A stretch of 33,896 bases of DNA from a virus (taxonomy: Duplodnaviria > Heunggongvirae > Uroviricota > Caudoviricetes), in the IMG/VR virus record IMGVR_UViG_2548876958_000018; one strand, 5' to 3'. Under the pieces are notes generated by a model. The model was not told the DNA's origin. It was given only the letters and a program-made list of their open reading frames with translations, and searched no databases. Both the position numbers and the translations under genes were made by a program. Positions 1 to 32,534 of the stretch are shown one piece after another. Numbering within the stretch: the stretch's first letter is position 1; the number at the start of each line of letters is the position of its first letter.

Positions 1-318
1 ATGAAAAAGATAGCTGCTATATCATTAATTAGTATTTTTATTATGTCTGGTTGTGCTGTGCATAATGATGAGACAAGTATCGGTAAATTTGGTCTTGCAT
101 ATAAAAGTAATATTCAGCGTAAACTCGATAACCAATACTACACCGAAGCCGAAGCTTCTTTAGCCAGGGGCAGAATATCTGGTGCAGAAAATATAGTAAA
201 AAATGATGCAGCCCATTTCTGTGTTACTCAGGGCAAAAAAATGCAGATAGTTGACCTGAAGACAGAAGGTGCAGGATTACATGGCGTCGCTCGTCTGACA
301 TTCAAATGTGGAGAGTGA
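1..318 (+). CDS. yegR: small secreted lipoprotein, host flank (YegR-like, 105 aa)
   Basis: 105-aa ORF starting at ATG at position 1; hydrophobic signal peptide with lipobox-like IMSGC; lies outside the left att repeat. Symbol is from recollection of the E. coli yegR-cyaR-yegQ neighbourhood, not verified. Confidence 0.5.
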   Translation: MKKIAAISLISIFIMSGCAVHNDETSIGKFGLAYKSNIQRKLDNQYYTEAEASLARGRISGAENIVKNDAAHFCVTQGKKMQIVDLKTEGAGLHGVARLTFKCGE

Positions 319-475
319 GAATATTTTTTGGTAAGCGTCAAACATGCGCGTTCTGGTTGTGCTTAGCCGGAACCTGTGCGAGCACGATGCCGTTACGTGA
401 AAGGCATCGTGCTATGAAGGGAGATTCTATCGATGTGGTCAATGGAAGACGGTGACCAGGGATAGGGCTTATGCA

Positions 476-503
476 TAAAAAATAAGCCCGTGTAAGGGAG
501 ATT
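476..503. repeat. attL core: 28-bp direct repeat, duplicate of the cyaR 3' end
   Basis: TAAAAAATAAGCCCGTGTAAGGGAGATT is identical to 32363..32390; flanking bases differ on both sides. Confidence 0.85.
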
Positions 504-582
504 TAGGGTGTCACCAGTAGGGGCTTTCAACGGTACAATGCGGGTTTGAGCGGCATAAATTACCACTGAAAGCCCTTAAACG

Positions 583-1596
583 TTACTCTACTGTGGACAC
601 TGTGTGGACACTCTCGGCCTCAGTACCACCTCTTAGCGGATTAAGAGAAATGGCGTCCTGAAGGTACTCTGGCGCAAAATGAGCGTAAACCATAGTTTGC
701 TCAATCCGCGTGTGACCTAGTATCCGTTGTAGCGTGATAATACTTCCTCCATTAATCATGAAATGAGTGGCAAAGCTGTGCCTTAGTGCATGTGTGGCTT
801 GCCCCATTGGCAAATCCGGTTTTATTGCTTTCATTGTTCGTCTGAAGCGAGGGTAATCAGCATCAGGGAATAAAAAACCTCGTTTGTTATCCGCGATCAT
901 TTTGGCAACAGCCTCTGAGATCGGGACGGTGCGTGGTTTGTTTGTTTTCGTTTTAACAAACGTGACGCGGTTATGGATGATATTTTCTGCTTTCAAACGA
1001 GCTGCTTCTCCCCAACGTGCTCCAGTACTCAGGCAAAGAATCGCAATCTTTTTGTTGTCGCCGTCAAGAGCAGCAAGCAGTAAGGCAATTTCTTCCTGCG
1101 TGAGATAGCCTGTGTCTGGTTTTTCCTCCTTAAGCCTTTTTGTCCCTCTGATAGGGTGCTCACCAAAGAATAACTCCGCTTCAATCAGGGCTGTAAACAT
1201 GCCGCTAATACATGTTAAATCACGATTGATACTCGAAGGTTTAATACCCTGACTTCTTCGGGTGGCGCAGTACTGGCTGATAAGCGATTTCGTAATTTGA
1301 AATGCGCATGGGTCATTCGTTATTTTTGTGAAGATTTCAATTTTTCCAAGATTAGATTTCCCATGCTCTTCGTGTTTACCCTTTAAATCCCACCAGATCT
1401 GTGTCAGCTCCGACAGACGTCGCTTGTCTGTTGGTTTTGATAGCCATTCTTTATTGTGGTGGTTGTACAACGTGTATTTCTCGAAAGCGACAGCTTCGCT
1501 TTTCTTATCAAACTTCCTACGGATGCGTTTTCCATTACGTCCAGTAGGGCGGATGTCCACTTCATATCGACCATCATCGAGTTTTTTGATTGCCAT
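583..1596 (-). CDS. int: tyrosine integrase (P2 Int-like, 337 aa)
   Basis: 337-aa ORF ending ~80 bp from attL core; C-terminal tyrosine-recombinase boxes HALRHSFATH and GHTRIEQTMVYAH; co-oriented with the repressor as in P2. Confidence 0.9.
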   Translation of the reverse strand: MAIKKLDDGRYEVDIRPTGRNGKRIRRKFDKKSEAVAFEKYTLYNHHNKEWLSKPTDKRRLSELTQIWWDLKGKHEEHGKSNLGKIEIFTKITNDPCAFQITKSLISQYCATRRSQGIKPSSINRDLTCISGMFTALIEAELFFGEHPIRGTKRLKEEKPDTGYLTQEEIALLLAALDGDNKKIAILCLSTGARWGEAARLKAENIIHNRVTFVKTKTNKPRTVPISEAVAKMIADNKRGFLFPDADYPRFRRTMKAIKPDLPMGQATHALRHSFATHFMINGGSIITLQRILGHTRIEQTMVYAHFAPEYLQDAISLNPLRGGTEAESVHTVSTVE

Positions 1597-1711
1597 CAGA
1601 AAACCCTCCGAGTGGTGTGTTTTTTTGCGACTACTAATCGCTTTTTTCGTGGTGGCTGAAATTTAGCCACCAATAGTAGGCACTTGTGATGAATATATTC
1701 ACGATGAATTG

Positions 1712-2011
1712 TTAACCAGTCTTTTGACCGGAGTGGGGCGACGTTGTTTCGTTTTGCCCAAAGTGTGCGAGAGCGGGCGCAATTTGCCCGGACTCAGGAG
1801 CGATCTGATTGGTCATGAACCATAAAGTGTATTTGGTGAATTGTGGGGTCTGCAGGATGTTCATCATGACATCTGTTGGAGGTGTTGAACGACCACTTTC
1901 ATAGTAACTCAGCGTGCCATACGGAACCCCTGTTAAATCAGCAAGTTGTTGTCTGCTCAAATACTCTGATTTTCGCATTAAGACTATCTTCTCGCTTATC
2001 GTGTTTGACAT
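1712..2011 (-). CDS. C: immunity repressor C (99 aa)
   Basis: 99-aa ORF upstream of int on the same strand, divergent from cox; size and position match P2 C. Confidence 0.8.
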   Translation of the reverse strand: MSNTISEKIVLMRKSEYLSRQQLADLTGVPYGTLSYYESGRSTPPTDVMMNILQTPQFTKYTLWFMTNQIAPESGQIAPALAHFGQNETTSPHSGQKTG

Positions 2012-2044
2012 GGTGTTTAGATCTCAATAGTATTTAGTTTAGAT
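2005..2044 (+). promoter_or_regulatory. candidate early promoter Pe with repressor operator repeats
   Basis: TTGACA at 2005..2010, 17-bp spacer, TAGTAT at 2028..2033; direct repeats GTTTAGAT at 2015..2022 and 2037..2044 (22 bp apart) flank the -10, the arrangement described for P2 C operators; a third TTTAG copy at 2052..2058. Confidence 0.45.
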
Positions 2045-2125
2045 GTAGATTGTTTAGTGCTTGGATGTGGGCACTAAAAGGCATTATAAGACATTAAACG
2101 CAATTCATGAGGGCTAGAGGACGAC

Positions 2126-2401
2126 ATGAGCAAGCAAGTAACACTCATGACTGATGCGATTCCTTATCAGGAGTTCGCAAAACTAATAGGAAAATCGACA
2201 GGAGCGGTTCGTCGGATGATCGATAAAGGAAAGCTGCCTGTAATTGATATGACCGATCCACAATCAGCTTCAGGTCGTGCAGGTGAATATTGGGTATACC
2301 TTCCGGCATGGAATAACGGACTAAAACTGGCTTATGAAAGCCGACCTAAAGAGATTCGTGACGGCTGGTTGATGTGGTTAGGTCTCGGTGAACCACGTTA
2401 A
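2126..2401 (+). CDS. cox: Cox-like excisionase / switch repressor (91 aa)
   Basis: 91-aa ORF, first gene of the rightward early operon, divergent from C. Confidence 0.8.
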   Translation: MSKQVTLMTDAIPYQEFAKLIGKSTGAVRRMIDKGKLPVIDMTDPQSASGRAGEYWVYLPAWNNGLKLAYESRPKEIRDGWLMWLGLGEPR

Positions 2402-2411
2402 GGAGAACCGT

Positions 2412-2582
2412 ATGAATGAGCCTCGTTGTATTGCTCAGTTACTGCGTAACGAAAGCCCCAGGGCGATTGACTTCACCATCACCCACGGTAAGGGGCGTAA
2501 GGGAATCATTATCCGCACCAAAAAACAGAGTCCGTTAAAAAAGGCTCTGACCTTTCTGAAAAGCCGGAGGGTATGGAAATGA
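2412..2582 (+). CDS. small early protein (P2 orf78 position)
   Basis: ATG at 2412 preceded by AGGAG at 2401..2405; basic 56-aa product; the track start at 2388 lacks an RBS and overlaps the cox end. Confidence 0.45.
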   Translation: MNEPRCIAQLLRNESPRAIDFTITHGKGRKGIIIRTKKQSPLKKALTFLKSRRVWK

Positions 2583-3079
2583 CAGTGATGACGCTCAATC
2601 TCGTTGAAAAACAGCCAGCAGCTATGCGCCGGATAATTGGTAAGCATCTTGCCGTTCCTCGCTGGCAGGATACATGTGATTATTATAATCAGATGATGGA
2701 GCGCGAACGGCTAACAGTTTGCTTTCATGCGCAGTTAAAACAGCGTCACGCAACGATGCGTTTTGAAGAAATGAACGACGTCGAACGTGAACGACTGGTA
2801 TGTGCAATTGATGAATTGCGTGGGGCATTCTCAAAACGTCGTCAGGTTGGTGCAAGTGAGTATGCATATATTAGTTTCTTAACAGTCAGTCAGCGTCGTA
2901 CTTTATTTATGCATGCCGGATTGACTGAAAAAGAATTTAACCAGCCATACTGGCGAATTAATGAAGAGTCATGTTACTGGCGTGATGCTTTATTCCGTGC
3001 ATTACGTGAATTATTCAGCCTGTTTGAGTATGCACCGACAATTCTGACGTCGGTAAAACCAGAGCAATATCTGCATTAA
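2579..3079 (+). CDS. B: replication protein B-like (166 aa)
   Basis: ATG at 2579 lies 8 nt after GGAGG (2566..2570) and overlaps the upstream stop (ATGA); 166 aa matches P2 gpB; synteny cox-B-A. Confidence 0.7.
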   Translation: MTVMTLNLVEKQPAAMRRIIGKHLAVPRWQDTCDYYNQMMERERLTVCFHAQLKQRHATMRFEEMNDVERERLVCAIDELRGAFSKRRQVGASEYAYISFLTVSQRRTLFMHAGLTEKEFNQPYWRINEESCYWRDALFRALRELFSLFEYAPTILTSVKPEQYLH

Positions 3080-3142
3080 GTAATTAACCAGAGTTTTTAA
3101 CGCACTTAATCGTGCGGGGCTTCTTTTTGCCTGGAGAAAGTT

Positions 3143-3367
3143 ATGCATACAGTTTCTGAAAATCAGTGCGGTAAATACGCATTACTGCTGCAACAGGCCA
3201 GAACCGAAGCACAGGCCGACGCTGCGACGCGCTTTTCTTCTCATCTTGATGCCATGATTCGCCACATCACAAAGGCGGAGTTATCCCGCGTGGAGATAGT
3301 CGAGCTGCTCAGTCAGGAGTCGGAAAAATTTCACAATATCGGATTGTCTCGCGGGGAGGTGCTTTGA
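3143..3367 (+). CDS. small early protein (P2 orf80 position)
   Basis: 74-aa ORF with GGAG 6 nt upstream; translationally coupled to next ORF. Confidence 0.5.
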
Positions 3368-3669
3368 TGTCCTGTTCTCGTTCAGTTGTATTACTGAATA
3401 ACGCCTTAAAAATCGCCGTTATGAAAAATGGCGATTTGTCTCTTATTCAACTTGGTCTTGATAAAGAAAAACGCGAAATAACTGAGTCTGTTATCGCGAT
3501 TTATCAGAACGAATTAAACCTCCTGTCTGATGTGGTCAATTTGCTTGTTAAACGCGCTGTGTTTCACAAGCAAATCTCCTCCGTGGATGAACTGACGAAA
3601 TTAACGACAGAAATCGCCAGCTATTGCGCTGATGAATTTAAAAACCTTAACGACAAAAGGAACTGGTAA
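3367..3669 (+). CDS. small early protein (P2 orf81 position)
   Basis: ATG at 3367 after GGAGG (3355..3359); TGATG overlap with the upstream stop. Confidence 0.5.
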   Translation: MSCSRSVVLLNNALKIAVMKNGDLSLIQLGLDKEKREITESVIAIYQNELNLLSDVVNLLVKRAVFHKQISSVDELTKLTTEIASYCADEFKNLNDKRNW

Positions 3670-3893
3670 TGCCGGACAACGTAGATTTTATTCAGGCACA
3701 ACAGGCTGAATTACTGGAGCGCCAGATTAACGCGGCAAGGGTAAAACATTGCGGTGCTTCTGCGATGGTTTGCGAAGAGTGTGACGCGCCAATACCTGCT
3801 GCCCGTCGTGCGGCTTATCCGTCAGCCACGCGTTGTGTTTCCTGTCAGTCAGTTTTTGAAGCAAAAAACAAACATTACCGGAGAACGGCATGA
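3669..3893 (+). CDS. DksA/TraR-family C4 zinc-finger protein (P2 orf82 position)
   Basis: 74-aa ORF with CEEC...(17 aa)...CVSC four-cysteine motif typical of TraR/DksA zinc fingers; TAATG coupling. Confidence 0.6.
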   Translation: MPDNVDFIQAQQAELLERQINAARVKHCGASAMVCEECDAPIPAARRAAYPSATRCVSCQSVFEAKNKHYRRTA

Positions 3894-4165
3894 GTATTCG
3901 TATTGAAATTGGCGAACGTTATGTCGTTACCAGTGACAGCTTTCAGTTTATTCTCCACGAGAAAAAGAGAGCTGAAAGCGGTAAAAACGCCGGTCAGGAA
4001 TGGCTGGCGGTGGTTGGTTATTACCCGAAATTAAGCCAGCTCGTTTCCGGCCTGATGCATCACGATATTCTGACCGGAAGCGCAAAGTCTTTTGCTGATT
4101 TAAACGCGCAGGTTGAGCAACTCAGCAAGCGTTGTTCAGAGGCTTTTGGCTCATATGGCCGTTAA
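3890..4165 (+). CDS. small early protein (P2 orf83 position)
   Basis: 91-aa ORF with RBS GGAGA; stop overlaps the A start. Confidence 0.5.
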   Translation: MSIRIEIGERYVVTSDSFQFILHEKKRAESGKNAGQEWLAVVGYYPKLSQLVSGLMHHDILTGSAKSFADLNAQVEQLSKRCSEAFGSYGR

Positions 4166-6427
4166 AGCCTCCGGGCGTTTTGTCCCTCCGTCAGCATTTG
4201 CCGCAGGCACCGGTAAGACGTTTACCGGTGCTTATGCATGGAACGCGCCACGCGAGGCCGTCGGGCGCGAAAGACCCCTTACACGTGACGAGATGCGTCA
4301 GGTGCAAGGTGTTTTATCCACGATTAACCGCCTGCCTTACTTTTTGCGCTCGCTGTTTACTTCACGCTATGACTACATCCGGCGCAATAAAAGCCCGGTG
4401 CACGGGTTTTATTTCCTCACATCCACTTTTCAGCGTCGTTTATGGCCGCGCATTGAGCGTGTGAATCAGCGCCATGAAATGAACACCGACGCGTCGTTGC
4501 TGTTTCTGGCAGAGCGTGATCACTATGCGCGCCTGCCGGGAATGAATGACAAGGAGCTGAAAAAGTTTGCCGCCCGTATCTCATCGCAGCTTTTCATGAT
4601 GTATGAGGAACTCAGCGATGCCTGGGTGGATGCGCATGGCGAGAAAGAATCACTGTTTACGGATGAGGCTCAGGATCACCTGTATGGTCATGTTGCTGGC
4701 GCTGCACGAGCTTTCAATATTTCCCCTCTCTACTGGAAAAAATACCGTAAAAGACAGATGACCACGAGGCAGGCATATTCTGCCATTGCCCGTCTGTTTA
4801 ACGATGAGTGGTGGACTCATCAGCTTAAAGGCCAGCGTATGCGCTGGCATGAAGCGTTACTGATAGCTGTCGGGGAGGTCAATAAAGACCGTTCTCCTTA
4901 TGCCAGTAAACACGCCATTCGTGATGTGCGTGCGCGCCGCCAGGCAAATCTGGAATTTCTTAAATCGTGTGACCTTGAAAACAGGGAAACCGGCGAGCGC
5001 ATCGACCTTATCAGTAAGGTGATGGGCAGTATTTCTAATCCTGAAATTCGCCGGATGGAGCTGATGAACACCATTGCCGGTATTGAGCGTTACGCCGCTG
5101 CAGAGGGTGATGTGGGGATGTTTATCACGCTGACCGCGCCGTCAAAGTATCACCCGACACGTCAGGTAGGAAAAGGCGAAAGTAAAACCGTGCAGCTTAA
5201 TCACGGCTGGAACGATGAGGCATTTAATCCAAAGGATGCGCAGCGTTATCTCTGCCGTATCTGGAGCCTGATGCGCACGGCATTCAAGGATAATGATTTA
5301 CAGGTCTACGGTTTGCGTGTCGTCGAGCCACACCACGACGGAACGCCGCACTGGCATATGATGCTTTTTTGTAATTCACGCCAGCGTAACCAGATTATCG
5401 AAATCATGCGTCGCTATGCGCTCAAAGAGGATGGCGACGAAAGAGGAGCCGCGCGAAACCGTTTTCAGGCAAAACACCTTAACCGGGGCGGTGCTGCGGG
5501 ATATATCGCGAAATACATTTCAAAAAACATCGACGGCTATGCACTGGATGGTCAGCTCGATAACGACACCGGCAGGCCGCTGAAAGACACTGCAGCGGCT
5601 GTTACCGCATGGGCGTCAACGTGGCGCATCCCGCAATTTAAAACGGTTGGCCTGCCGACAATGGGGGCTTACCGTGAACTACGCAAATTGCCGCGCGGCG
5701 TCAGCATTGCTGATGAGTTTGACGAGCGCGTCGAGGCTGCACGCGCCGCCGCAGACAGTGGTGATTTTGCGTTGTATATCAGCGCGCAGGGTGGGGCACA
5801 AATGTCCCGCGCGATTGTCAGACTGTCAGAGTCGCCCGTAGCCCGTCGGATGAAGTTAACGAGTACGAGGAAGAAGTCGAGAGAGTGGTCGGCATTTACG
5901 CGCCGCATCTCGGCGCGCGTCATATTCATATCACCAGAACGACGGACTGGCGCATTGTGCCGAAAGTGCCGGTCGTTGAGCCTTTGACTTTAAAAAGCGG
6001 CATCGCCGCGCCTCGGAGTCCTGTCAATAACTGTGGAAAGCTCACCGGTAGTGATGTTTCGTTACCGGCTCCCACACCTTCTGAGCACGCCGCCGCAGTG
6101 CTTAATCTGGTTGATGACGGTGTTATCGAATGGAATGACCAGGAGGTCGTGAGGGCGCTCAGGGGCGCATTAAAACACGACCTGAGAACACCAAACCGTC
6201 AGCAAAGAAGCGGAAGCCCGTTAAAACCGCATGAAATAGCGCCATCGGCCAGACTGACCCGGTCGGAACGAATGCAAATTACCCGTATCCGCGTTGACCT
6301 TGCTCAGAACGGTATCAGGCCGCAGCGATGGGAGCTTGAGGCGCTGGCGCGTGGGGCAACTGTAAATTACGACGGGAGAAGCTTCAGTTATCCTGTTATA
6401 TGTGATTGGAGAGCGTATGAATTATGA
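4155..6427 (+). pseudogene. A: rolling-circle replication initiator A (HUH endonuclease), interrupted by a -1 frameshift
   Basis: ATG at 4155 overlaps the upstream stop (ATGGCCGTTAA). HUH-type motif TPHWHMMLF and catalytic tyrosine motif GYIAKYISK are present. The reading frame switches between 5765 and 5987: the upstream frame runs to a stop at 5987, while the downstream frame (GTG 5885..6427) is open from 5765. Combined length of about 757 codons is close to P2 gpA (761 aa, from memory). Confidence 0.8.
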
Positions 6428-6482
6428 GATTGTGATAAAAAGTAAATAATTAATATAATGCAATTGCTTAACTGTTTTAAAA

Positions 6483-6513
6483 GGGACAACGTAGTTGTGA
6501 ACTATATTGTCCC
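6483..6513. terminator. hairpin between convergent A and endonuclease genes (possible bidirectional terminator)
   Basis: GGGACAA (6483..6489) pairs with TTGTCCC (6507..6513) across a 17-nt loop in an AT-rich spacer; no clean U-run, so weak. Confidence 0.25.
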
Positions 6514-6520
6514 GGGAGTA

Positions 6521-7576
6521 TTAATTTTTAAATATGGATTGTATGTATTCTATAGTGCTATCTTTAGCTCTGATGTCTTTTAAAGTGTTATTTATGAAAT
6601 CTATTATTCTGTCATTACTTAATAGTGGCGATAACGCATAACATGTTGTTGTGAATGTCATGACGTCACTAAAGCTTAGTGAAACACCTTTTGTCGCAGC
6701 GTTCTCAATCGCAAGAGACTCATCAATATCTAAGTTTGTTGCTCTTGGCCCTTTAAGGAAGATAACTTTTGAAATCCCGGATGCAGATGCTTTTGAAACG
6801 GCGTGATTAACATCTTGATAATTAAATGGTTTGTCTTTCACTTCTATAGAAAGGAAAACTATATCATCATGATATACATCTATGTCCAGTATCTCTTTTG
6901 AGGAGCTACCGGCCTGATTGACGGGATGTGCTTTTATTATCCATCCTCTTTGTTCACCTAATAAATGTAACGAAATTGCGGCAGCAATCGCGCATGTTTC
7001 TCCATCACAAGGATGAGATATAATATTATAAATAATCTTATGGAAATCAAAATTAATTGAGTTCGGCGTTATAACTCTATTGGTTCGCTGTAGGGTAAAA
7101 TATAATGCAATAACAAGCATTTCATAAGCTAAGGTTTGGGTTGTTGCTGCATGTAATATATCAATTGAAAGTTGTTGTAAAACCTTATCATTTCCTCTGC
7201 GCACAGGGTTATCAGAGGAGTGGAGCATGTAACGAGCTGGTTTATTTAGAAATGGCTCATTTGATGCGCCTAACTTACCCTCTAAAAATGGGCCTTCTAC
7301 TTTGCCTACTATTACCGAATGACATAAACTCCTTGCATCATAGGCTCCGTCTACGGGGGCATTAGCTTGTAAAGCCAGAGGGTTAACTCTAGGGTCTGTT
7401 GCTTTTGCAAGTAAACCAGTAATAAGTATATATCTGTATGTAAGGTGGGTGCCTAAAATTACATTTTGAATGGAGACCCATTGATTATTTGTTTTGTAAT
7501 CAGTTAATTTTTTTGCATCGTTGATTGCATTTATAATTACATTATAGGCTTGCTCATGATTTACTAATACTTTCAT
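6521..7576 (-). CDS. putative Type II restriction endonuclease (351 aa)
   Basis: AT-rich ORF directly downstream of, and overlapping by 23 bp, the HTH controller gene; divergent from the methyltransferase; PD-(D/E)xK-like signature DIDVYHDDIVFLSIEVKDK; RBS AAGGA 5 nt before the ATG. Confidence 0.6.
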   Translation of the reverse strand: MKVLVNHEQAYNVIINAINDAKKLTDYKTNNQWVSIQNVILGTHLTYRYILITGLLAKATDPRVNPLALQANAPVDGAYDARSLCHSVIVGKVEGPFLEGKLGASNEPFLNKPARYMLHSSDNPVRRGNDKVLQQLSIDILHAATTQTLAYEMLVIALYFTLQRTNRVITPNSINFDFHKIIYNIISHPCDGETCAIAAAISLHLLGEQRGWIIKAHPVNQAGSSSKEILDIDVYHDDIVFLSIEVKDKPFNYQDVNHAVSKASASGISKVIFLKGPRATNLDIDESLAIENAATKGVSLSFSDVMTFTTTCYALSPLLSNDRIIDFINNTLKDIRAKDSTIEYIQSIFKN

Positions 7577-7868
7577 AGGTGTCCTTTAGTAAGATATCCA
7601 TTGGTAGACCTAATCGGCTTGCAACCACCTCTAATAATTCAAATAGTTCTAAAGCATCTAATCGCCTTTCAAAGCTTTCGATTTTAGATATATCTGATTG
7701 TGATAATCCTAGAAAAATGGCCAATTCTGACTGCGAAAGAGAAGCTTCTTTGCGTAGTTTGGTGAGAAGCTGGACTAGGCACCTGTATCTATGATCATGT
7801 ATAGTTGGTTGTCGTTTTGCCATGTGGTTTAGAAGGTGATTGATTGTGTGTCGATCCTTACCTATCAT
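7554..7868 (-). CDS. controller (C) protein of the R-M system, XRE-family HTH
   Basis: 104-aa ORF with helix-turn-helix segment LSQSELAIFLGLSQSDISKIE; sits in the gap between divergent R and M genes, upstream of and overlapping R; alternative start at Met16 (7823). Confidence 0.65.
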   Translation of the reverse strand: MIGKDRHTINHLLNHMAKRQPTIHDHRYRCLVQLLTKLRKEASLSQSELAIFLGLSQSDISKIESFERRLDALELFELLEVVASRLGLPMDILLKDTYESISKS

Positions 7869-7873
7869 TGGTT

Positions 7874-7892
7874 TTATTCCAAAATCGAATAA
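7874..7892. promoter_or_regulatory. candidate operator (C-box-like inverted repeat) between controller and methyltransferase starts
   Basis: TTATTC-N7-GAATAA dyad at 7874..7892, immediately upstream of the controller start (7868) and before the methyltransferase GTG (7907). Confidence 0.3.
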
Positions 7893-7906
7893 TTGGTGCT
7901 AAAGAA

Positions 7907-8998
7907 GTGAACAAAATTTCAGCGGTGAGCTTATTTACTGGGGCAGGAGGGATGGATGTCGGTTTCTCTAATGCCGGGTTCCGAACAGTTTGGGCCAATG
8001 ATATAGATAAGGATGCATGTGATACATTTAAGCTTAATCATGAATCACCTGTTTTTTGTGGTGATATTGATGAGATGCTAAGTGAATTGTCTGGGCTGAA
8101 AAATATAGGTTGTGTTTTTGGTGGGCCTCCATGCCAAGGATTTTCTGTGGCAGGGAAAATGGACGCTCATGATCCACGTAGTAAGCTGGTTATGTCATTC
8201 ATGCGGGCGGTGGATATAATTCAACCAGAATGCTTTGTTATGGAGAATGTTAAGGCTTTAGCACAGTTGTCCAAATTTGAACCAGTTAGGTGTGAACTGT
8301 TTAAGATGGCTGAAAAGTCAGGCTATCGTTCAGCCTTGCTGGTGCTGAATTCTAAAGATTTTGGCGTTCCTCAGAATAGGGAACGTATGTTTTTTATAGG
8401 GTTTCGTTCCGAAAATGATGTGAAACGAGTTGAGGCGGCGATAAAAAAATACCAATATCTTTCGCCAACAGTTGGTGAGATTATTCGGCCTTTAGGGCGA
8501 GCGGGTAATCCAAATAATTCAAGAGTCTGTAATGCAAGGATTACAAATGCTGCTAAGCCAGTATTACGGAAGTCACCTTACGCGGGAATGATGTTTAACG
8601 GGCAGGGAAGACCAATTAACCCGAATGGGTATGCTTCAACTATAGCTGCTTCTATGGGGGGGAATAGGACACCAATTATTGATGAAGAACACCTTTATGA
8701 TGGCTCAACAAGTTATGTTGAGACTTATCATAATCATCTAATGAATGGTGGTGAGCCAAAAGATATGCACGATGTACCTAGTCGTTTACGTCGACTAACG
8801 ATAGATGAGGCTCTTTTGATTCAAACATTCCCGAGTAATTATGTCTTTGTGGGGAAAAATTCGTCAATTTGGCGTCAGATAGGGAATGCTGTGCCTTGTA
8901 AATTGGCGCAGGCTGTTGCTGCAGGGGTTTTGGATGTCCTTACTGGTAAAACTATTAATGTTCAAAAGAGTCAAACAGAGTTGAGTTTGAATTCGTAA
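7907..8998 (+). CDS. DNA (cytosine-5)-methyltransferase
   Basis: Motif I LFTGAGGMDVGF, motif IV GPPCQGFS, motif VI ENV, motif VIII QNRERMFFIG. Start taken as the in-frame GTG at 7907, which leaves a 330-bp gap to the R start; the track's TTG at 7844 (RBS-like AAGGTG 5 nt upstream) is an alternative that would overlap the controller gene. Confidence 0.9.
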   Translation: MNKISAVSLFTGAGGMDVGFSNAGFRTVWANDIDKDACDTFKLNHESPVFCGDIDEMLSELSGLKNIGCVFGGPPCQGFSVAGKMDAHDPRSKLVMSFMRAVDIIQPECFVMENVKALAQLSKFEPVRCELFKMAEKSGYRSALLVLNSKDFGVPQNRERMFFIGFRSENDVKRVEAAIKKYQYLSPTVGEIIRPLGRAGNPNNSRVCNARITNAAKPVLRKSPYAGMMFNGQGRPINPNGYASTIAASMGGNRTPIIDEEHLYDGSTSYVETYHNHLMNGGEPKDMHDVPSRLRRLTIDEALLIQTFPSNYVFVGKNSSIWRQIGNAVPCKLAQAVAAGVLDVLTGKTINVQKSQTELSLNS

Positions 8999-9154
8999 AA
9001 CGGATCACATTTTCAAACCGATGGATGCAGAATTTAACATTGCTGCATGAGTTTGCATCTTGAAATCATAAGCTGTACTGCTTAGCTTGACCAGAATTGA
9101 TGTGGGTAAGAAGTGGTTATGCACCCGCATTAAAACCGCCCCATTAAGCGGGCG

Positions 9155-9173
9155 GGCGAGGCGGGGAAAGCAC
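9155..9173. other. cos cohesive-end site (19-nt)
   Basis: GGCGAGGCGGGGAAAGCAC matches my recollection of the P2 cohesive end; located beside the 3' end of the portal gene, as at the P2 genome left end. Confidence 0.55.
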
Positions 9174-9342
9174 TGCGCGCTGGCGGTGGTGCTGATTTTA
9201 TTTTTTCAGCGTCTGAGCGCGTCGTGATGGCGTTTAGATTGTTCGCCGGGGCGTTGGTGTGTCTGCGGGCTGTTTTGTGCGGTGGTGAGCGTGTGAGGGC
9301 GTGATGGCGGGGTGTAAAAAAGCCGCCCACAGGCGGCGATGT

Positions 9343-12322: not shown

Positions 12323-13176
12323 ATGGCAAAAAAAGTCTCAAAATTCTTTCGTATCGGCGTTGAGGGTGACACCTGTGACGGGCGTGTCATCAGTGCGCAG
12401 GATATTCAGGAAATGGCCGAAACCTTTGACCCGCGAGTCTATGGTTGCCGCATTAACCTGGAACATCTGCGCGGCATCCTGCCTGACGGTATTTTTAAGC
12501 GTTATGGCGATGTGGCCGAACTGAAGGCCGAAAAGATTGACGATGATTCGGCGCTGAAAGGCAAATGGGCGCTGTTTGCGAAAATCACCCCGACCGATGA
12601 CCTTATCGCGATGAACAAGGCCGCGCAGAAGGTCTACACCTCAATGGAAATTCAGCCGAACTTTGCCAACACCGGCAAATGTTATCTGGTGGGTCTGGCC
12701 GTCACCGATGACCCGGCAAGCCTCGGCACGGAATACCTGGAATTCTGCCGCACGGCAAAACACAACCCCTGAACCGCTTCAAATTAAGCCCTGAAAACCT
12801 GATTTCAGTGGCAACGCCTGTTGAGCTGGAATTTGAAGACCTGCCTGAAACCGTGTTCACCGCCCTGACCGAAAAGGTGAAATCCATTTTTGGCCGCAAA
12901 CAGGCCAGCGATGACGCCCGTCTGAATGACGTGCATGAAGCGGTGACCGCTGTTGCTGAACATGTGCAGGAAAAACTGAGCGCCACTGAGCAGCGCCTCG
13001 CTGAGATGGAAACCGCCTTTTCCGCACTTAAGCAGGATGTGACTGACAGGGCGGATGAAACCAGTCAGGCATTCACCCGCCTGAAAAACAGTCTCGACCA
13101 CACCGAAAGTCTGACCCAGCAGCGCCGCAGTAAAGCCACCGGCGGTGGCGGTGACGCCCTGATGACGAACTGCTGA
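12323..13176 (+). pseudogene. O: capsid scaffold protein O, interrupted by a -1 frameshift
   Basis: ATG at 12323 (MAKKVSKFF...). Frame stops at TGA 12770..12772 and continues in the -1 frame from 12772 (track ORF 12808..13176). The span is 854 bp, one base short of 284 codons plus stop; the C4 run at 12766..12769 is the likely indel site. Confidence 0.8.
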
Positions 13177-13234: not shown

Positions 13235-14308
13235 ATGCGCCAGGAAACCCGCTTTAAATTTAATGCCTACCTGTCCCGTGTTGCCGAACTGAACGGCATC
13301 GACGCCGGTGATGTGTCGAAAAAATTCACCGTTGAACCGTCGGTCACCCAGACCCTGATGAACACCATGCAGGAGTCCTCTGACTTTCTGACCCGCATCA
13401 ACATTGTGCCGGTCAGCGAAATGAAAGGGGAAAAAATTGGCATCGGTGTCACCGGCTCCATCGCCAGCACCACCGACACCGCCGGTGGCACCGAGCGTCA
13501 GCCGAAGGACTTCTCGAAGCTGGCGTCAAACAAGTACGAATGCGACCAGATTAACTTCGATTTTTATATCCGCTACAAAACGCTGGACCTGTGGGCGCGT
13601 TATCAGGATTTCCAGCTCCGTATCCGTAACGCCATTATCAAACGCCAGTCCCTTGATTTCATCATGGCCGGTTTTAACGGCGTGAAGCGTGCCGAAACCT
13701 CTGACCGCAACAGCAATCCGATGCTGCAGGATGTGGCGGTCGGCTGGCTGCAGAAATACCGCAATGAAGCCCCGGCGCGCGTGATGAGCAAGGTCACTGA
13801 CGAGGAAGGGCACACCACCTCTGAGGTCATCCGCGTGGGTAAGGGCGGTGATTATGCCAGCCTTGATGCACTGGTGATGGATGCGACCAACAACCTGATT
13901 GAGCCGTGGTATCAGGAAGACCCTGACCTTGTGGTGATTGTGGGACGTCAGCTACTGGCGGACAAGTATTTTCCCATCGTCAACAAGGAGCAGGACAACA
14001 GCGAAATGCTGGCCGCTGACGTCATCATCAGCCAGAAACGCATCGGTAACCTGCCGGCGGTACGCGTCCCGTACTTCCCGGCGGATGCGATGCTCATCAC
14101 GAAGCTGGAAAACCTGTCCATCTACTACATGGATGACAGTCATCGCCGCGTGATTGAGGAAAACCCGAAACTTGACCGCGTGGAGAACTACGAGTCAATG
14201 AACATTGATTACGTGGTGGAAGACTACGCCGCCGGTTGTCTGGTGGAAAAAATTAAGGTCGGTGATTTCTCCACACTGGCTAAAGCGACCGCAGAGCCGG
14301 GAGCGTAA
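13235..14308 (+). CDS. N: major capsid protein (357 aa)
   Basis: 357-aa ORF after the scaffold gene; size and order match P2 gpN. Confidence 0.9.
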   Translation: MRQETRFKFNAYLSRVAELNGIDAGDVSKKFTVEPSVTQTLMNTMQESSDFLTRINIVPVSEMKGEKIGIGVTGSIASTTDTAGGTERQPKDFSKLASNKYECDQINFDFYIRYKTLDLWARYQDFQLRIRNAIIKRQSLDFIMAGFNGVKRAETSDRNSNPMLQDVAVGWLQKYRNEAPARVMSKVTDEEGHTTSEVIRVGKGGDYASLDALVMDATNNLIEPWYQEDPDLVVIVGRQLLADKYFPIVNKEQDNSEMLAADVIISQKRIGNLPAVRVPYFPADAMLITKLENLSIYYMDDSHRRVIEENPKLDRVENYESMNIDYVVEDYAAGCLVEKIKVGDFSTLAKATAEPGA

Positions 14309-14311
14309 CCG

Positions 14312-15055
14312 ATGACGAGTCCCGCACAGCGCCACATGATGCGGGTCTCGGCAGCGATGACCGCGCAGCGGGAAGCCGCCCCGCTGCGACATGCAACTGT
14401 CTATGAGCAGATGCTGGTTAAGCTCGCCGCAGACCAGCGCACACTGAAAGCGATTTATTCAAAAGAGCTGAAGGCCGCGAAAAAACGCGAACTGCTGCCG
14501 TTCTGGTTGCCGTGGGTGAACGGCGTGCTGGAGCAGGGCAAAGGCGCACAGGATGACATTCTGATGACGGTCATGCTGTGGCGTCTGGATACCGGAGATA
14601 TTGCCGGTGCGCTGGAGATTGCCCGTTATGCCCTGAAGTACGGTCTGACCATGCCGGGTAAACACCGCCGCACCCCGCCGTACATGTTCACCGAGGAGGT
14701 CGCGCTCGCGGCCATGCGCGCCCACGCTGCCGGTGAATCTGTGGATACCCGCCTGCTGACGGAAACCCTTGAACTGACCGCCACGGCAGACATGCCTGAT
14801 GAAGTGCGCGCAAAGCTGCACAAAATCACCGGTCTGTTTCTGCGTGACGGTGGTGATGCCGCCGGTGCGCTGGCTCACCTGCAACGTGCGACACAGCTCG
14901 ACTGTCAGGCAGGCGTCAAAAAAGAGATTGAACGACTGGAGCGGGAGCTGAAACCGAAGCCGGAGCCGCAGCCAAAAGCGGCCACCCGCGCCCCGCGTAA
15001 GACCCGGAGTGCGACACCGGCAAAACGTGGACGCCCGAAAAAGAAAGCCAGTTAA
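14312..15055 (+). CDS. M: terminase small / endonuclease subunit (247 aa)
   Basis: 247-aa ORF with a basic Lys/Arg/Pro-rich C-terminus; position after N. Confidence 0.8.
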   Translation: MTSPAQRHMMRVSAAMTAQREAAPLRHATVYEQMLVKLAADQRTLKAIYSKELKAAKKRELLPFWLPWVNGVLEQGKGAQDDILMTVMLWRLDTGDIAGALEIARYALKYGLTMPGKHRRTPPYMFTEEVALAAMRAHAAGESVDTRLLTETLELTATADMPDEVRAKLHKITGLFLRDGGDAAGALAHLQRATQLDCQAGVKKEIERLERELKPKPEPQPKAATRAPRKTRSATPAKRGRPKKKAS

Positions 15056-15154
15056 CAACCGAATGCGCCCCGCGCCAGGGCGGCACGTCGGTCAGTGAGG
15101 GTGAATCACCTGACACTGCACCGGCGTCCACCGCCCGACTTTTCAGAGGTAGTC

Positions 15155-15664
15155 ATGATGACGCTGATTATTCCGCGAAAGGAGGCTCCCGTGTCCGGTG
15201 AGGGTACGGTGGTCATCCCGCAACCGGCAGGCGACGAGCCGGTGATTAAAAACACGTTCTTTTTTCCCGATATCGACCCGAAGCGCGTCCGGGAACGTAT
15301 GCGCCTTGAGCAGACCGTCGCCCCCGCCCGTCTGCGTGAGGCTATCAAGTCAGGCATGGCGGAGACGAATGCGGAGCTGTACGAGTACCGCGAACAGAAA
15401 ATTGCCGCCGGTTTTACGCGTCTGGCGGACGTCCCGGCGGACGACATCGACGGTGAAAGCATCAGGGTTTTTTACTACGAGCGCGCCGTGTGTGCGATGG
15501 CGACCGCGTCGCTTTATGAGCGTTATCGCGGCGTGGATGCCAGTGCGAAAGGCGACAAGAAGGCCGACAGCATTGACAGCACCATTGATGAGCTGTGGCG
15601 GGATATGCGCTGGGCAGTGGCGCGAATCCAGGACAAGCCGCGCTGCATCGTGAGTCAAATCTGA
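15155..15664 (+). CDS. L: head completion protein (169 aa)
   Basis: ATG at 15155 after GAGGT (15146..15150) gives 169 aa; the track's upstream extension lacks an RBS. Confidence 0.75.
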   Translation: MMTLIIPRKEAPVSGEGTVVIPQPAGDEPVIKNTFFFPDIDPKRVRERMRLEQTVAPARLREAIKSGMAETNAELYEYREQKIAAGFTRLADVPADDIDGESIRVFYYERAVCAMATASLYERYRGVDASAKGDKKADSIDSTIDELWRDMRWAVARIQDKPRCIVSQI

Positions 15665-15867
15665 TGAAGACCTTTGCGCTACAGGGCGACACGCTCGACG
15701 CCATTTGTGTCCGGTATTACGGGCGCACTGAGGGCGTGGTCGAAGCCGTGCTCGCCGCAAATCCGGGACTGGCTGAACTGGGTGTGGTGCTGCCACACGG
15801 CACCGCCGTCGAACTGCCCGACGTTCAGACCGCGCCCGTGGCTGAAACTGTCAATCTGTGGGAGTAA
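15664..15867 (+). CDS. X: tail protein X (67 aa)
   Basis: ATG at 15664 overlaps the L stop (TGATG); 67-aa product; precedes the lysis cassette. Confidence 0.7.
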   Translation: MKTFALQGDTLDAICVRYYGRTEGVVEAVLAANPGLAELGVVLPHGTAVELPDVQTAPVAETVNLWE

Positions 15868-15870
15868 CGC

Positions 15871-16152
15871 ATGACAGCAGAAGAAAAAAGCGTCCTGTCG
15901 CTTTTCATGATTGGGGTGCTGATTGTTGTCGGCAAGGTGCTTGCCGGTGGTGAACCCATCACCCCGCGTCTGTTTATCGGGCGCATGTTGCTCGGTGGTT
16001 TTGTCTCGATGGTTGCCGGTGTTGTTCTGGTGCAGTTTCCTGACCTGTCACTGCCTGCAGTGTGCGGCATCGGCTCCATGCTGGGTATCGCCGGTTATCA
16101 GGTGATTGAGATTGCCATTCAGCGCCGCTTTAAGGGCAGGGGGAAACCGTAA
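15871..16152 (+). CDS. Y: holin (93 aa)
   Basis: 93-aa protein with hydrophobic membrane segments, immediately upstream of the endolysin. Confidence 0.75.
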   Translation: MTAEEKSVLSLFMIGVLIVVGKVLAGGEPITPRLFIGRMLLGGFVSMVAGVVLVQFPDLSLPAVCGIGSMLGIAGYQVIEIAIQRRFKGRGKP

Positions 16153-16649
16153 TGCCGGTAATTAACACGCATCAGAATATCGCCGCCTTTCTCGACATGC
16201 TGGCGGTATCCGAAGGGACGGCGAATCATCCGCTGACGAAAAACCGTGGCTATGACGTGATAGTCACCGGACTGGACGGGAAGCCGGAAATTTTCACCGA
16301 CTACAGTGACCACCCGTTCGCGCATGGCCGACCGGCGAAGGTCTTTAACCGTCGCGGTGAAAAGTCCACGGCATCCGGTCGCTATCAGCAGCTTTACCTG
16401 TTCTGGCCGCACTACCGCAAACAGCTTGCCCTGCCGGATTTCAGTCCGTTGTCACAGGACAGGCTCGCCATTCAGTTGATCCGCGAACGCGGTGCACTGG
16501 ATGACATCCGGGCGGGACGCATTGAGCGCGCTATTTCACGCTGTCGCAATATCTGGGCGTCCCTGCCGGGAGCCGGTTACGGTCAGCGTGAGCATTCACT
16601 GGAAAAACTGGTCACCGTCTGGCGTACCGCTGGCGGCGTACCGGCTTAA
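16152..16649 (+). CDS. K: endolysin (165 aa)
   Basis: 165-aa soluble protein between the holin and the lysis accessory genes; P2 gpK position. Confidence 0.8.
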   Translation: MPVINTHQNIAAFLDMLAVSEGTANHPLTKNRGYDVIVTGLDGKPEIFTDYSDHPFAHGRPAKVFNRRGEKSTASGRYQQLYLFWPHYRKQLALPDFSPLSQDRLAIQLIRERGALDDIRAGRIERAISRCRNIWASLPGAGYGQREHSLEKLVTVWRTAGGVPA

Positions 16650-16663
16650 ACGGAGTAAACACC

Positions 16664-17089
16664 ATGAAGAAATTATCCCTTTCACTGATGCTGAACGTGT
16701 CGCTGGCGCTGATGCTGGCACTGTCCCTGATTTACCCGCAGAGCGTGGCCGTCAATTTTGTCGCTGCCTGGGCGATTCTGGCGACGGTTATCTGTGTGGT
16801 TGACGGTGGTGTCGGCGTGTATGCCACTGAGTATGTGCTGGAACGCTACGGGCGGGAGCTGCCGCCGGAATCGCTGGCCGTGAAGATTGTCACGGCGCTG
16901 TTTTTGCAGCCGGTGCCGTGGCGCAGACGGGCGGCGGCTCTGGTGGTGATGGTGGCGACGTTTATCGCGCTGGTCGCTGCCGGGTGGATTTTTACCGCGC
17001 TGATTTATCTCGTGGCGTCGCTGTTTTTCCGGCTGATACGCACGGCCTGCCGTCAGCGTCTTGAGGGGCGGGAACTATGTCAAAGCTGA
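16664..17089 (+). CDS. lysA: lysis timing membrane protein LysA-like (141 aa)
   Basis: multi-TM 141-aa protein downstream of the endolysin. Confidence 0.6.
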   Translation: MKKLSLSLMLNVSLALMLALSLIYPQSVAVNFVAAWAILATVICVVDGGVGVYATEYVLERYGRELPPESLAVKIVTALFLQPVPWRRRAAALVVMVATFIALVAAGWIFTALIYLVASLFFRLIRTACRQRLEGRELCQS

Positions 17090-17520
17090 TGATTGCACTG
17101 GTCGTGTTGTTATCGCTGGCGGTGGCGGGGCTGTTTCTGGCGAAGCATGAAAACGCCAGACTGCGCGCCTCACTGGACAGGGCGAACAACGTCGCCAGCG
17201 GGCAGCAGACGACCATCACCATGCTGAAAAATCAGCTTCATGTTGCCCTCACCAGAGCAGACAAAAACGAGCTGGCGCAGGTGGTACTGCGTCAGGAACT
17301 GGAGAACGCCGCGAAGCGTGAAGCACAGCGCGAGAAAACCATCACGAGGTTACTTAATGAAAACGAAGATTTTCGCCGCTGGTACGGCGCTGACCTGCCT
17401 GATGCTGTGCGCCGGTTGCACCAGCGCCCCGCCTGCACCGACGCCAGTGATTGTCCACAACGCCTGCCCAAAAGTGAGTCTTTGCCCGATGCCGGGCAGC
17501 GACCCGGAGACGAACGGTGA
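17077..17520 (+). CDS. lysB: inner-membrane spanin subunit (LysB / Rz-like)
   Basis: N-terminal TM helix followed by a charged coiled-coil-like region; contains the embedded lipoprotein gene in another frame. Confidence 0.65.
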   Translation: MSKLMIALVVLLSLAVAGLFLAKHENARLRASLDRANNVASGQQTTITMLKNQLHVALTRADKNELAQVVLRQELENAAKREAQREKTITRLLNENEDFRRWYGADLPDAVRRLHQRPACTDASDCPQRLPKSESLPDAGQRPGDER

Positions 17521-17647
17521 TTTAAGTGCCGATATCCGGCAGCTTGAGAACGCGCTGGCGCGCTGTGCCAGCCAGGTAAAAATGATTAAACACTGTCAGG
17601 ACGAAAACGATGCTCAAACCCGACAGCCTGCGCAGGGCGCTGACTGA
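17357..17647 (+). CDS. lysC: outer-membrane lipoprotein spanin subunit (LysC / Rz1-like), embedded in lysB
   Basis: ATG at 17357 in the +1 frame of lysB; signal peptide with lipobox LCAGC; Pro-rich; 96 aa; extends past the lysB stop into the R start. Confidence 0.6.
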   Translation: MKTKIFAAGTALTCLMLCAGCTSAPPAPTPVIVHNACPKVSLCPMPGSDPETNGDLSADIRQLENALARCASQVKMIKHCQDENDAQTRQPAQGAD

Positions 17648-18593: not shown

Positions 18594-19379
18594 TTATGAG
18601 TGATTTTTATTTGATGCTTTGTATTCTACAACCTTCTTATTGGCGTAAAGGAATTTTGTATATGACAGGAATATAACCAGACCTGAAATGAAATAGATGA
18701 GGGATATTATTAATAATGCTTTTTTTTGGCTGTTATTATCTTTAATCTCCTGACTTAACCATTCCGAGTCCTCCTCGTTTAGCTGTAAGAGCTTATTGCA
18801 GGCGATCTCAGGAAGTGTGTCTTTTATAAATACGTTTCGTAGCCTCTTGCAATCGGCAAGGCTATAAGTTTTATTGAATTCAACTGTTTTATTGTTGAAG
18901 GATAAAAGAACTTTGTCACTATAAACATAGTACATCATATTTTTATATGGTATGCCTATGGCATCTCTTACTATAACGGATTGTTTGTTGTGTATATAAC
19001 ATGCGAAGAGAATATAAATAATGCTGGACAGAATTACAATTATTGTTTTAATTATGTGTGGTGGTTTTGTTATGTCACCCCAGAAGCGAGTAAGAAAAAA
19101 ATACGATGTTTTTAGTTTTCCATCAATCAGCCCCTGCTGTATCATTCTCACATCTTCGATGCCTGATACATTGATTCCGTTAATTATTTTAAATAGTTGA
19201 ATGTCGCGCCATTTTTTGTCGAGCATTTTTAACTTTCTGTCTGAATACTCAAAATTGAAATGATGTGCAATAAACCTCATAAGATTACTTTTACCAAAGG
19301 TAATAAATGTTAATGCTATTAATAAAAATAGATACAAAGAGATAAACCACCACGCATTAGTCACATTATCACTGAACAT
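18594..19379 (-). CDS. AT-rich moron: 261-aa membrane protein with three predicted TM helices, unknown function (P2 orf30 position)
   Basis: Antisense to the flanking tail operon; strongly AT-rich unlike neighbours; hydrophobic segments near residues 10-28, 112-130 and 221-240; no recognisable catalytic motif. Confidence 0.7.
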   Translation of the reverse strand: MFSDNVTNAWWFISLYLFLLIALTFITFGKSNLMRFIAHHFNFEYSDRKLKMLDKKWRDIQLFKIINGINVSGIEDVRMIQQGLIDGKLKTSYFFLTRFWGDITKPPHIIKTIIVILSSIIYILFACYIHNKQSVIVRDAIGIPYKNMMYYVYSDKVLLSFNNKTVEFNKTYSLADCKRLRNVFIKDTLPEIACNKLLQLNEEDSEWLSQEIKDNNSQKKALLIISLIYFISGLVIFLSYTKFLYANKKVVEYKASNKNHS

Positions 19380-19462
19380 TACGCTCTCCTCGAATGTTGT
19401 ATGGTCGTTCTACAAATGAATCCAGATAGCATAACTTTTATATATTGTGCAATCTCACACGC

Positions 19463-20098
19463 ATGAACACTCTCGCAAATATTCAGGAACTCGCGCGCGC
19501 ACTGCGCAACATGATTCGTACCGGCCTTGTCGTCGAAACCAACCTTAAAGCCGGTCGCTGCCGTGTGCAGACCGGTGGCATGTGCACTGACTGGCTTCAG
19601 TGGCTGACCCATCGTGCCGGACGTTCGCGCACATGGTGGGCACCTTCCGTGGGGGAGCAGGTGCTGATTCTGGCTGTGGGCGGTGAACTCGACACGGCGT
19701 TCGTTCTGCCGGGGATTTATTCCGGCGATAACCCCGCGCCGTCTGCGTCGGCGGATGCCCTGCATATCCGTTTCCCTGACGGGGCGGTGATTGAGTATGA
19801 ACCCGAAACCAGTGCACTCACGGTAAGCGGAATTAAAACGGCCAGCGTGACGGCTTCTGATTCTGTTACTGCCACGGTGCCGGTGGTCATGGTGAAAGCA
19901 TCAACCCGCGTCACCCTGGACACACCGGAGGTGGTCTGCACCAACAGGCTGATTACCGGCACGCTGGAAGTGCAGAAGGGCGGGACGATGCACGGCAACA
20001 TTGAACACACCGGCGGTGAACTCTCATCAAACGGTAAGGTACTGCATACCCATAAACACCCCGGCGACAGCGGCGGCACAACCGGGAGCCCTCTATGA
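19463..20098 (+). CDS. V: baseplate central spike protein (211 aa)
   Basis: ATG at 19463 gives 211 aa; first gene of the V-W-J-I-H-G operon. Confidence 0.8.
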   Translation: MNTLANIQELARALRNMIRTGLVVETNLKAGRCRVQTGGMCTDWLQWLTHRAGRSRTWWAPSVGEQVLILAVGGELDTAFVLPGIYSGDNPAPSASADALHIRFPDGAVIEYEPETSALTVSGIKTASVTASDSVTATVPVVMVKASTRVTLDTPEVVCTNRLITGTLEVQKGGTMHGNIEHTGGELSSNGKVLHTHKHPGDSGGTTGSPL

Positions 20099-23989: not shown

Positions 23990-24517
23990 ATGATGCACTT
24001 AAAGAACATAAAAGCGGGTAACACTAAAACACTGGAACAGTATGAGTTAACAAAGAAGCATGGAGTCATCTGGCTTTACACTGAAGACGGGAAAAACTGG
24101 TATGAGGAAGTGAAGAACTTTCAGTCAGACACAATAAAGATTGTTTACGACGAGAATAATATAATTGTCGGCATCACCCGAGATGCTTCAACGCTTAACC
24201 CTGAAGGTTTTAGCGTTGTCGAGGTTCCTGATATTACTGCCAACCGACGTGCTGATGACTCAGGTAAATGGATGTTTAAGGATGGTGCCGTGATTAAGCG
24301 GATTTATACGGCAGACGAACAGCAGCAACTGGCAGAATCACAAAAGGCAACTTTGCTTTCCGAAGCCGAATCCGTGATTTTGCCGCTGGAGCGCGCTGTC
24401 AGGCTGAATATGGCAACAGATGAGGAACGCAGCCGACTGGAAGCATGGGAACGCTACAGCGTTCTGGTCAGCCGTGTGGATCCTGCAAATCCTGAATGGC
24501 CGGAAATGCCGCAATAA
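23990..24517 (+). CDS. G: tail fiber assembly chaperone (175 aa)
   Basis: 175-aa ORF immediately after the fiber gene; P2 gpG position. Confidence 0.75.
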
Positions 24518-32362: not shown

Positions 32363-32390
32363 TAAAAAATAAGCCCGTGTAAGGGAGATT
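32363..32390. repeat. attR core: 28-bp direct repeat overlapping the cyaR 3' terminator
   Basis: identical to 476..503. Confidence 0.85.
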
Positions 32391-32450: not shown

Positions 32451-32534
32451 GAAACGGATGATAACCTTAATAAATGCAGCTGTATGTGATCGGTTTCTAA
32501 GAATTTTCCATCCGGGAAAAATAATCGAAATTAA

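Follow-up and report, generated by a model that had tools for sequence, protein, structure and literature searches.

The window, which is the whole stretch of 33,896 nucleotides analysed here, is a segment of Escherichia coli chromosome with yegR at 1-318 and yegQ at 32535-33896, and its right flank (32391-33896) is 100% identical to that of K-12. A P2-like prophage of 31.9 kb (476-32390) lies between these two genes. Its boundaries and its cargo are as follows.

476-503, no strand assigned: left att core, a 28-bp direct repeat with 32363-32390
6521-8998, no strand assigned: intact cargo of the gpA-gpQ hotspot, three genes
6521-7576, minus strand: SacI-family restriction endonuclease
7554-7868, minus strand: HTH controller-like protein
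7844-8998, plus strand: C5 cytosine methyltransferase
32363-32390, no strand assigned: right att core repeat

By tblastn, 39 of the 42 P2 proteins queried are matched in the window, in P2 gene order; those without a match are the accessory fun(Z), tin and old, and orf91 has no match as a separate gene. The identity of the backbone is mostly 93-100%, the exceptions being orf30 (85%), G (89%) and H, which is mosaic. In its gene order, att repeats and backbone homologues the element is a P2-like (Peduovirus) prophage. All P2 backbone proteins are full length except A and O, and the integrase, the repressor C, cox, the att sites and the tail and lysis genes are intact. The positions of tin and old are taken by the restriction endonuclease, the HTH protein and the methyltransferase; the gpA-gpQ locus is a known defence hotspot (PMC9122126).

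The replication initiator gene A, which is the main subject of this study, is interrupted. The features that describe it are as follows.

4155-5987, plus strand: truncated gene A ORF encoding 610 aa, native gpA residues 1-548 followed by 62 out-of-frame residues and a TGA stop
5349-5357, plus strand: HUH motif of the rolling-circle endonuclease (H399-W-H401), located before the break and inside PF05840
5502-5516, plus strand: active-site tyrosine pair Y450-I-A-K-Y454, upstream of the break
5797-5800, plus strand: the lesion, a tandem dinucleotide duplication, CA to CACA (intact genes GGGGCAAATG, window GGGGCACAAATG)
5799-5987, plus strand: out-of-frame tail QMSRAIVRLSESPVARRMKLTSTRKKSREW...SLSL with the premature stop at 5985-5987
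5801-6427, plus strand: 3' part of gene A displaced into the -1 frame, encoding native residues 549-756 with 0 internal stops
6004-6027, plus strand: P2 ori, a 24-mer identical to the annotated nick region of P2 (NC_001895 position 29892)

The start of gene A is the ATG at 4155, a TTG at 4113 merely lengthening the mechanical ORF, and the A frame ends as ...CRKCRSLSL at a TGA stop that is in phase with 4155 and 5766. Behind a TGA at 5762-5764, the -1 frame stays open from 5765 until it reaches its own stop at 6425-6427, and it contains ...NVPRDCQTVRVARSPSDEVNEYEEEVERVVGIYAPHLG.... When P2 gpA was used as a tblastn query, residues 1-563 matched in frame 3 with 96.8% identity and residues 538-754 matched in frame 2 with 88.5% identity (E = 1.7e-112); the two matches lie in different frames, and the -1 frame is therefore the authentic C-terminal coding part of gpA and not a chance ORF. 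Deletion of one CA in silico gives a gpA of 756 aa and a stop (757 codons) that reads ...ISAQGGANVPRDCQTV... as in P2 and exactly regains the consensus ...GGANVPRD..., the frame change falling after Ala548, at the codon 548/549 split. An earlier reading of this DNA from its letters and open reading frames, referred to here as the sequence-only reading, had placed the stop of the A frame at 5987 behind a junk-like tail, had described the -1 frame as open and protein-like from 5765 through 6427, had located the HUH and tyrosine motifs upstream of the break and had estimated a combined length of about 757 codons. All of this is borne out by direct reading of the coordinates, by the tblastn match to P2 gpA, by the positions of the HWH and YIAKY motifs and by the length of the repaired gene. 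The single uninterrupted ORF of about 750-770 codons is lacking in the window, and gene A as it stands there is a pseudogene of the Phage_GPA family, not an intact member.

The two duplicated copies occupy 5797-5798 and 5799-5800, directly 5' of a run of three adenines at 5800-5802, in the context GGGGCA(CA)AATG. Aligned against gene A of Peduovirus P24C9, Yersinia phage L-413C and Escherichia phage 720R8, all three of them intact, the window has gap-free flanks and exactly one indel, the subject spans of intact A genes being 2 nt shorter than that of the window, and the same +2 (CA) difference is present in whole-prophage comparisons with P2, P24C9, 13TMH22, BS74R-D and XH989. The window gene is otherwise colinear with several intact orthologues, and the indel, which is +2 relative to four phage genes and 13TMH22, is not a multiple of 3. 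The change of CA to CACA is an event of the type expected from replication slippage, and the frame shift after Ala548 yields a 610-aa product in which the catalytic domain is complete and the C-terminal 208 residues are absent.

In the truncated product, the match to Phage_GPA (PF05840) extends over residues 133-462 and covers profile positions 1-321 of 321 (E = 1.2e-122, 409 bits with a cut-off of 31.4), and the HUH and Y-x-x-x-Y motifs of the gpA family are both in the A frame. The equivalent of the P2 nick is at approximately window position 6015, which is 28 nt beyond the premature stop and inside the gene's own coding sequence. The residues lost from the product are 549-756. Scans against Pfam and NCBIfam placed no domain in this region and a PDB sequence search found no relative with a solved structure; the NCBIfam scan of the complete repaired gpA gave no family. 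A single-sequence AlphaFold model of residues 549-756 has a mean pLDDT of 53 and is confident only at about 698-748, where a helix-helix-hairpin is predicted, the remainder being largely predicted as disordered; a Foldseek search of the PDB with this model gave no match with E <1, and literature searches on domain mapping of the gpA C terminus found nothing usable. Among P2-type phage isolates the lost region shows about 90% identity. In Yersinia enterocolitica phages 97% of it can be aligned, with about 50% identity, and in Klebsiella phages its first approximately 90 aa are 43-46% identical. Its dN/dS is 0.19-0.45, as compared with 0.07 for the N-terminal part. Of its 208 residues, about 170 or more are retained in the phage isolates compared over it. 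Judged by these comparisons, the lost region behaves as functional coding sequence would.

A truncated gpA comprising residues 1-548 and the tail might nevertheless still be a working initiator or nickase, in which case the lesion would be phenotypically mild or the protein might even have been retained for function. The complete Pfam catalytic domain and the intact HUH motif, tyrosines and ori are compatible with such an activity, as are the lower constraint on the C-terminal region and its mostly low-confidence or disordered model, and in some other prophages hotspot cargo cuts A short at its 3' end, as in XH989, where it has 673 codons. Natural A genes also differ in size at their very 3' end, with lengths of 709 to 769 aa. 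The XH989 prophage, however, is itself defective, with a frameshifted O. The retention of most of the lost residues in the phage isolates compared, the absence of the insertion from all 75 phage records, a dN/dS below 1 for the lost region, its approximately 50% identity in distant P2-like phages and the limitation of the allele to one small lineage also argue against a residual function, which we consider unlikely. Because the lost region stays in frame in every phage isolate examined, we infer that the truncated gpA is plausibly unable to support rolling-circle replication. It is established from P2 genetics that P2 gpA acts in cis, and the defect in A would therefore be reparable only by recombination and not by complementation from a co-infecting phage. 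The gpA protein makes its nick at the ori inside the gene that encodes it and is joined covalently to the 5' end (PMC8537503).

The second backbone gene that is not full length in this prophage is O, and the change in it was missed by the sequence-only reading.

12766-12769, plus strand: gene O (capsid scaffold/protease) frameshift, CCCC here, CCCCC in P2 and CCCTC in P24C9 and 13TMH22

This change from C5 to C4 splits O near residue 146-149 into an ORF of 149 aa (12323-12772) and a -1-frame remainder that extends to 13176, and it is predicted to prevent phage production independently of the lesion in A. The C4 segment of O was found in 0 of 95 phage records. The exact 149-aa N-terminal fragment of O is indexed in 121 blocks of the assembly collection and occurs in many P2-like prophages that have an intact A and varied hotspot cargo (SIR2, retron, AAA_13, HIRAN and others). 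A 141-nt O segment identical to that of the window is present in three complete E. coli genomes, and in the two that were inspected, BS74R-D and XH989, O is annotated as "frameshifted." The C4 allele sits on O backgrounds that are as far from the window as the intact alleles are, and this diversity favors recurrent slippage from C5 to C4 over one haplotype; a single haplotype spread by descent was ruled out by the differing backgrounds. The lesion site in O reads AAC CCC TGA, at which tRNA-Pro, if it re-paired one base back (-1) on C-CCC at the stop, would restore exactly the wild-type gpO.

It could be supposed from these sequences that neither frameshift is fully lethal and that the prophage is leaky or conditionally competent, the 610-aa gpA still nicking ori and slippage of tRNA-Pro restoring gpO. 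We regard this combination as very unlikely; if it were true, the recurrence of C4 on many P2-like backgrounds could reflect tolerance and not only a mutational hotspot.

The CA insertion is present in none of the 1,686 copies of the segment, which occur in 1,485 of 5,426 complete E. coli genomes, and the best matches among these genomes are 97.5% identical to the segment, the difference being the 2-base gap. All 75 phage records with a match to the lesion site also lack it. In genome_contigs (two scans), viral_contigs and metagenome_contigs, scans for the exact pattern of the insertion allele gave 0 matches; the strain is absent from those collections. In contig assemblies from NCBI and Logan sources, however, an exact-sequence look-up found the exact 610-aa product in five contigs, the longest of 229 kb. 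A Logan contig of SRR15361848 is 100% identical to window positions 1-20772 (20.7 kb), both frameshifts included. The Logan assembly of SRR12769930 also contains the CA duplication, with 100% identity over window positions 1-9175; an adjoining contig, which includes the O frameshift, differs from the window by only 2 SNPs between 9151 and 13480. There are then 111 SNPs across 13480-17608, after which the sequence is again identical up to 20772. This divergent patch of 4.1 kb indicates that in SRR12769930 the same prophage lineage is represented by a second, distinct strain that has a recombination tract, and the presence of both frameshifts in the second strain indicates that both are inherited mutations. 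The frameshift in A is therefore reproduced in independent read sets or strains (SRR15361848, SRR12769930 and the NCBI assembly); the NCBI assembly may have been made from the SRR15361848 reads, and only SRR12769930 is certainly independent.

These data bear on whether the insertion is an artefact of sequencing or assembly and the true A gene is intact. That neither the 5,426 complete E. coli genomes nor the 75 phage records contain the insertion, and that the second frameshift of the window is at a homopolymer, a typical error site of some platforms, could both be read in this way. The same 610-aa product and the same DNA are nevertheless found in Logan assemblies of two SRA runs and in the NCBI assembly, a strain distinguished by its recombination patch has both frameshifts, and the duplication of a CA dinucleotide outside any repeat is not a typical platform error. 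An artefact is accordingly highly improbable and was discarded on the basis of reproducibility across other assemblies and strains. The CACA allele is confined to one small lineage.

The nature of the lesion differs from that originally proposed, which was that a single base had been lost somewhere between 5765 and 5885, the A run at 5800-5802 being the likeliest place. The run exists in the window as described, the break adjoins it, and the -1 frame downstream fits a 1-bp deletion as well as a 2-bp insertion. The parts of the proposal that stand are accordingly the frameshift itself, the -1 frame downstream and a position within 3 nt of the chosen site; the missing base does not, CA being duplicated instead. 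The type of lesion was misjudged because a +2 insertion and a -1 deletion give the same downstream frame. Alignment with intact P2-family A genes, which had been suggested as a check, showed two extra bases rather than one missing. The run of three adenines is identical in every intact homologue and a run of four is present in none, all intact homologues are exactly 2 bases shorter with perfect flanks, and removal of CA yields the exact consensus protein. A one-base deletion at this run, which would call for an intact relative reading GGGGCACAAAATG, is ruled out by the homologue alignments, and we give the loss of one base practically no chance. As the lesion consists of two extra bases, the proposed refutation of the frameshift, that resequencing would show an extra base, was mis-specified.

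Programmed recoding, by -1 ribosomal frameshifting or transcriptional slippage within 5765-5987, could in principle yield a full-length gpA, since the two frames overlap by 223 nt and a shift anywhere in the overlap joins them, but we put its probability at next to nothing and a programmed -1 site was rejected on both heptamer and conservation grounds, because 5760-5990 has neither an in-frame X XXY YYZ slippery heptamer nor a homopolymer of 5 or more, the homologues are single ORFs without the two-frame arrangement (0 of 1,686 genomic and 0 of 75 phage copies), and a shift anywhere except at the lesion would replace native residues.

The closest relative of the early region is in E. coli 13TMH22 (NZ_CP019256.1), which has the yegR site and the SacI-type restriction-modification cargo in common with the window. 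Window positions 1-9200 differ from 13TMH22 by 5 SNPs and the CA and by nothing else. The 13TMH22 A allele (WP_148124245.1, 756 aa) is identical to that of the window except that it lacks the CA duplication and has one SNP, at 6096; this is a private Ala-to-Val change of 13TMH22, the window holding the P2-like consensus codon. The displaced 3' part of A in the window has accumulated no stops and no extra changes. The near-identity to an intact allele and the unchanged 3' part indicate that the frameshift in A is very recent. In the 13TMH22 prophage, unlike that of the window, O is intact; what disrupts that element is IS3, inserted in int, and an IS26 resistance region lying in the tail genes.

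Taken together, these results make it very probable that gene A carries a real, heritable duplication of CA and is a recent pseudogene in a decaying P2-like prophage. The duplication is found in a prophage lineage that has a second frameshift, in the essential gene O, and that has kept int, the repressor, cox, att, the other morphogenetic genes and the cargo. The P2 prophage is non-inducible, and the most likely reading is that a repressed prophage of this non-inducible kind is undergoing neutral decay or domestication. Such early-stage decay is ordinary in prophages and a known kind of event. With A and O both broken, the prophage is to be annotated as defective and should be listed neither among functional P2-like phages nor among P4 helpers; from known P2/P4 biology it should be useless as a helper for P4-type satellites without gpO. 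The consequence is mainly for annotation, the locus being a gpA pseudogene through a 2-bp duplication. The prophage also illustrates cleanly how prophage decay begins, with two point frameshifts and the rest intact, including the restriction-modification cargo, and the CACA allele can conveniently serve to mark the lineage of strains in which it occurs.

As compared with the gpA of P2 (NP_046795.1, 761 aa), a cis-acting HUH rolling-circle initiator with ori in its own gene, the repaired gpA of the window is 97.4% identical over the first 745 colinear residues. The window gene resembles that of P2 in its HUH and Y-x-x-x-Y motifs, its place after orf83 in the early operon and its nick-site 24-mer but is interrupted after codon 548 by the 2-bp duplication. 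The last approximately 10 residues of the window gpA differ from those of P2 because the 3' end abuts different hotspot cargo. The prophages of XH989/XH987 (NZ_CP102679.1) are also P2-like elements at yegR-yegQ that have a gpA without its C terminus and the same C4 frameshift in O as the window. In these, however, the 3' end of A is replaced by SIR2/ATPase cargo at codon ~673, and the prophages are only about 97% identical to that of the window. E. coli K-12 carries a cryptic P2 remnant (ogrK/yegZ) at yegR-yegQ, and the window prophage has the same integration site as this remnant. In a 2026 survey of defective P2-like elements, replication genes were the core genes most often pseudogenised and defence genes were conserved (PMC13586616). 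The window prophage is like those elements in having an inactivated replication gene and intact defence genes in the hotspot, in agreement with published surveys of defective P2-like elements that keep their defence genes. Unlike the defective P2-like prophages and the K-12 remnant, it is at an early stage of decay, with two point frameshifts only, no deletions and all other backbone proteins at full length.

Gene A is not the only frameshifted gene in this prophage. A second frameshift lies in gene O, where a C5-to-C4 contraction at 12766-12769 leaves a 149-aa N-terminal fragment, with the remainder of the gene in the -1 frame. The features discussed here are as follows.

1-318, yegR flank
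476-503 and 32363-32390, 28-bp att direct repeat bounding the prophage
6521-8998, SacI-family restriction endonuclease, small HTH (controller-like) protein and C5 cytosine methyltransferase, all intact
12323-13176, gene O (capsid scaffold/protease), frameshifted, lesion at 12766-12769
18594-19379, orf30 homologue
19379-19765, minus strand, 128-aa ORF adjoining the orf30 homologue, between S and V
21889-23988, gene H (tail fibre)
23990-24517, gene G
24739-25332, plus strand, 197-aa ORF between G and FI
32535-33896, yegQ flank

In the index of public assemblies, 121 blocks hold the 149-aa O fragment in its exact sequence, and none of 95 phage records contains it. It occurs in P2-like prophages of many different backgrounds, with varied hotspot cargo and an intact A. 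The lesion site reads AAC-CCC-TGA, and, judging from the sequence, slippage of tRNA-Pro by -1 at this point would give back gpO in its wild-type form. In several further prophages with the C4 allele of O (L012, which is GCA_030036515.1, CP121347.1, together with L016 and L019), terminase, capsid or L genes are also split; either these prophages have decayed further or the assemblies behind them are error-prone.

Both frameshifts are present in a second strain, represented by contigs L010 and L020 of the Logan assembly of SRR12769930. Its contigs differ from the window by 111 SNPs in a 4.1-kb tract (13480-17608) that spans genes N-M-L-X-Y-K-lysA-lysB, whereas the flanks of this tract are near-identical, and therefore a recombination tract separates the two strains. 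One strain gained this tract after the two had diverged from an ancestor that already carried both frameshifts.

Gene H has a mosaic structure when compared with P2. Identity is 96% over the N-terminal 251 aa of its product and 62% in the C-terminal part, with no P2 match for the middle, and the ORF encodes 699 aa rather than the 669 aa of P2. This mosaicism is a typical exchange of host-range modules. The 197-aa ORF, which has no Pfam match, occupies the position of P2 fun(Z); it and the 128-aa ORF are accessory loci. In the gpA-gpQ defence hotspot, where P2 carries tin and old, this prophage has instead the SacI-family restriction-modification cassette, and the same cassette occurs at 99.3-99.7% identity in ~20 complete E. 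coli genomes.

The prophage lies between yegR and yegQ, where K-12 has its cryptic P2 remnant. P2-like prophages at this same site in two other E. coli strains have decayed differently: that of 13TMH22 has an IS3 in int and an IS26 resistance island, and that of XH989 has a truncated A and a frameshifted O.
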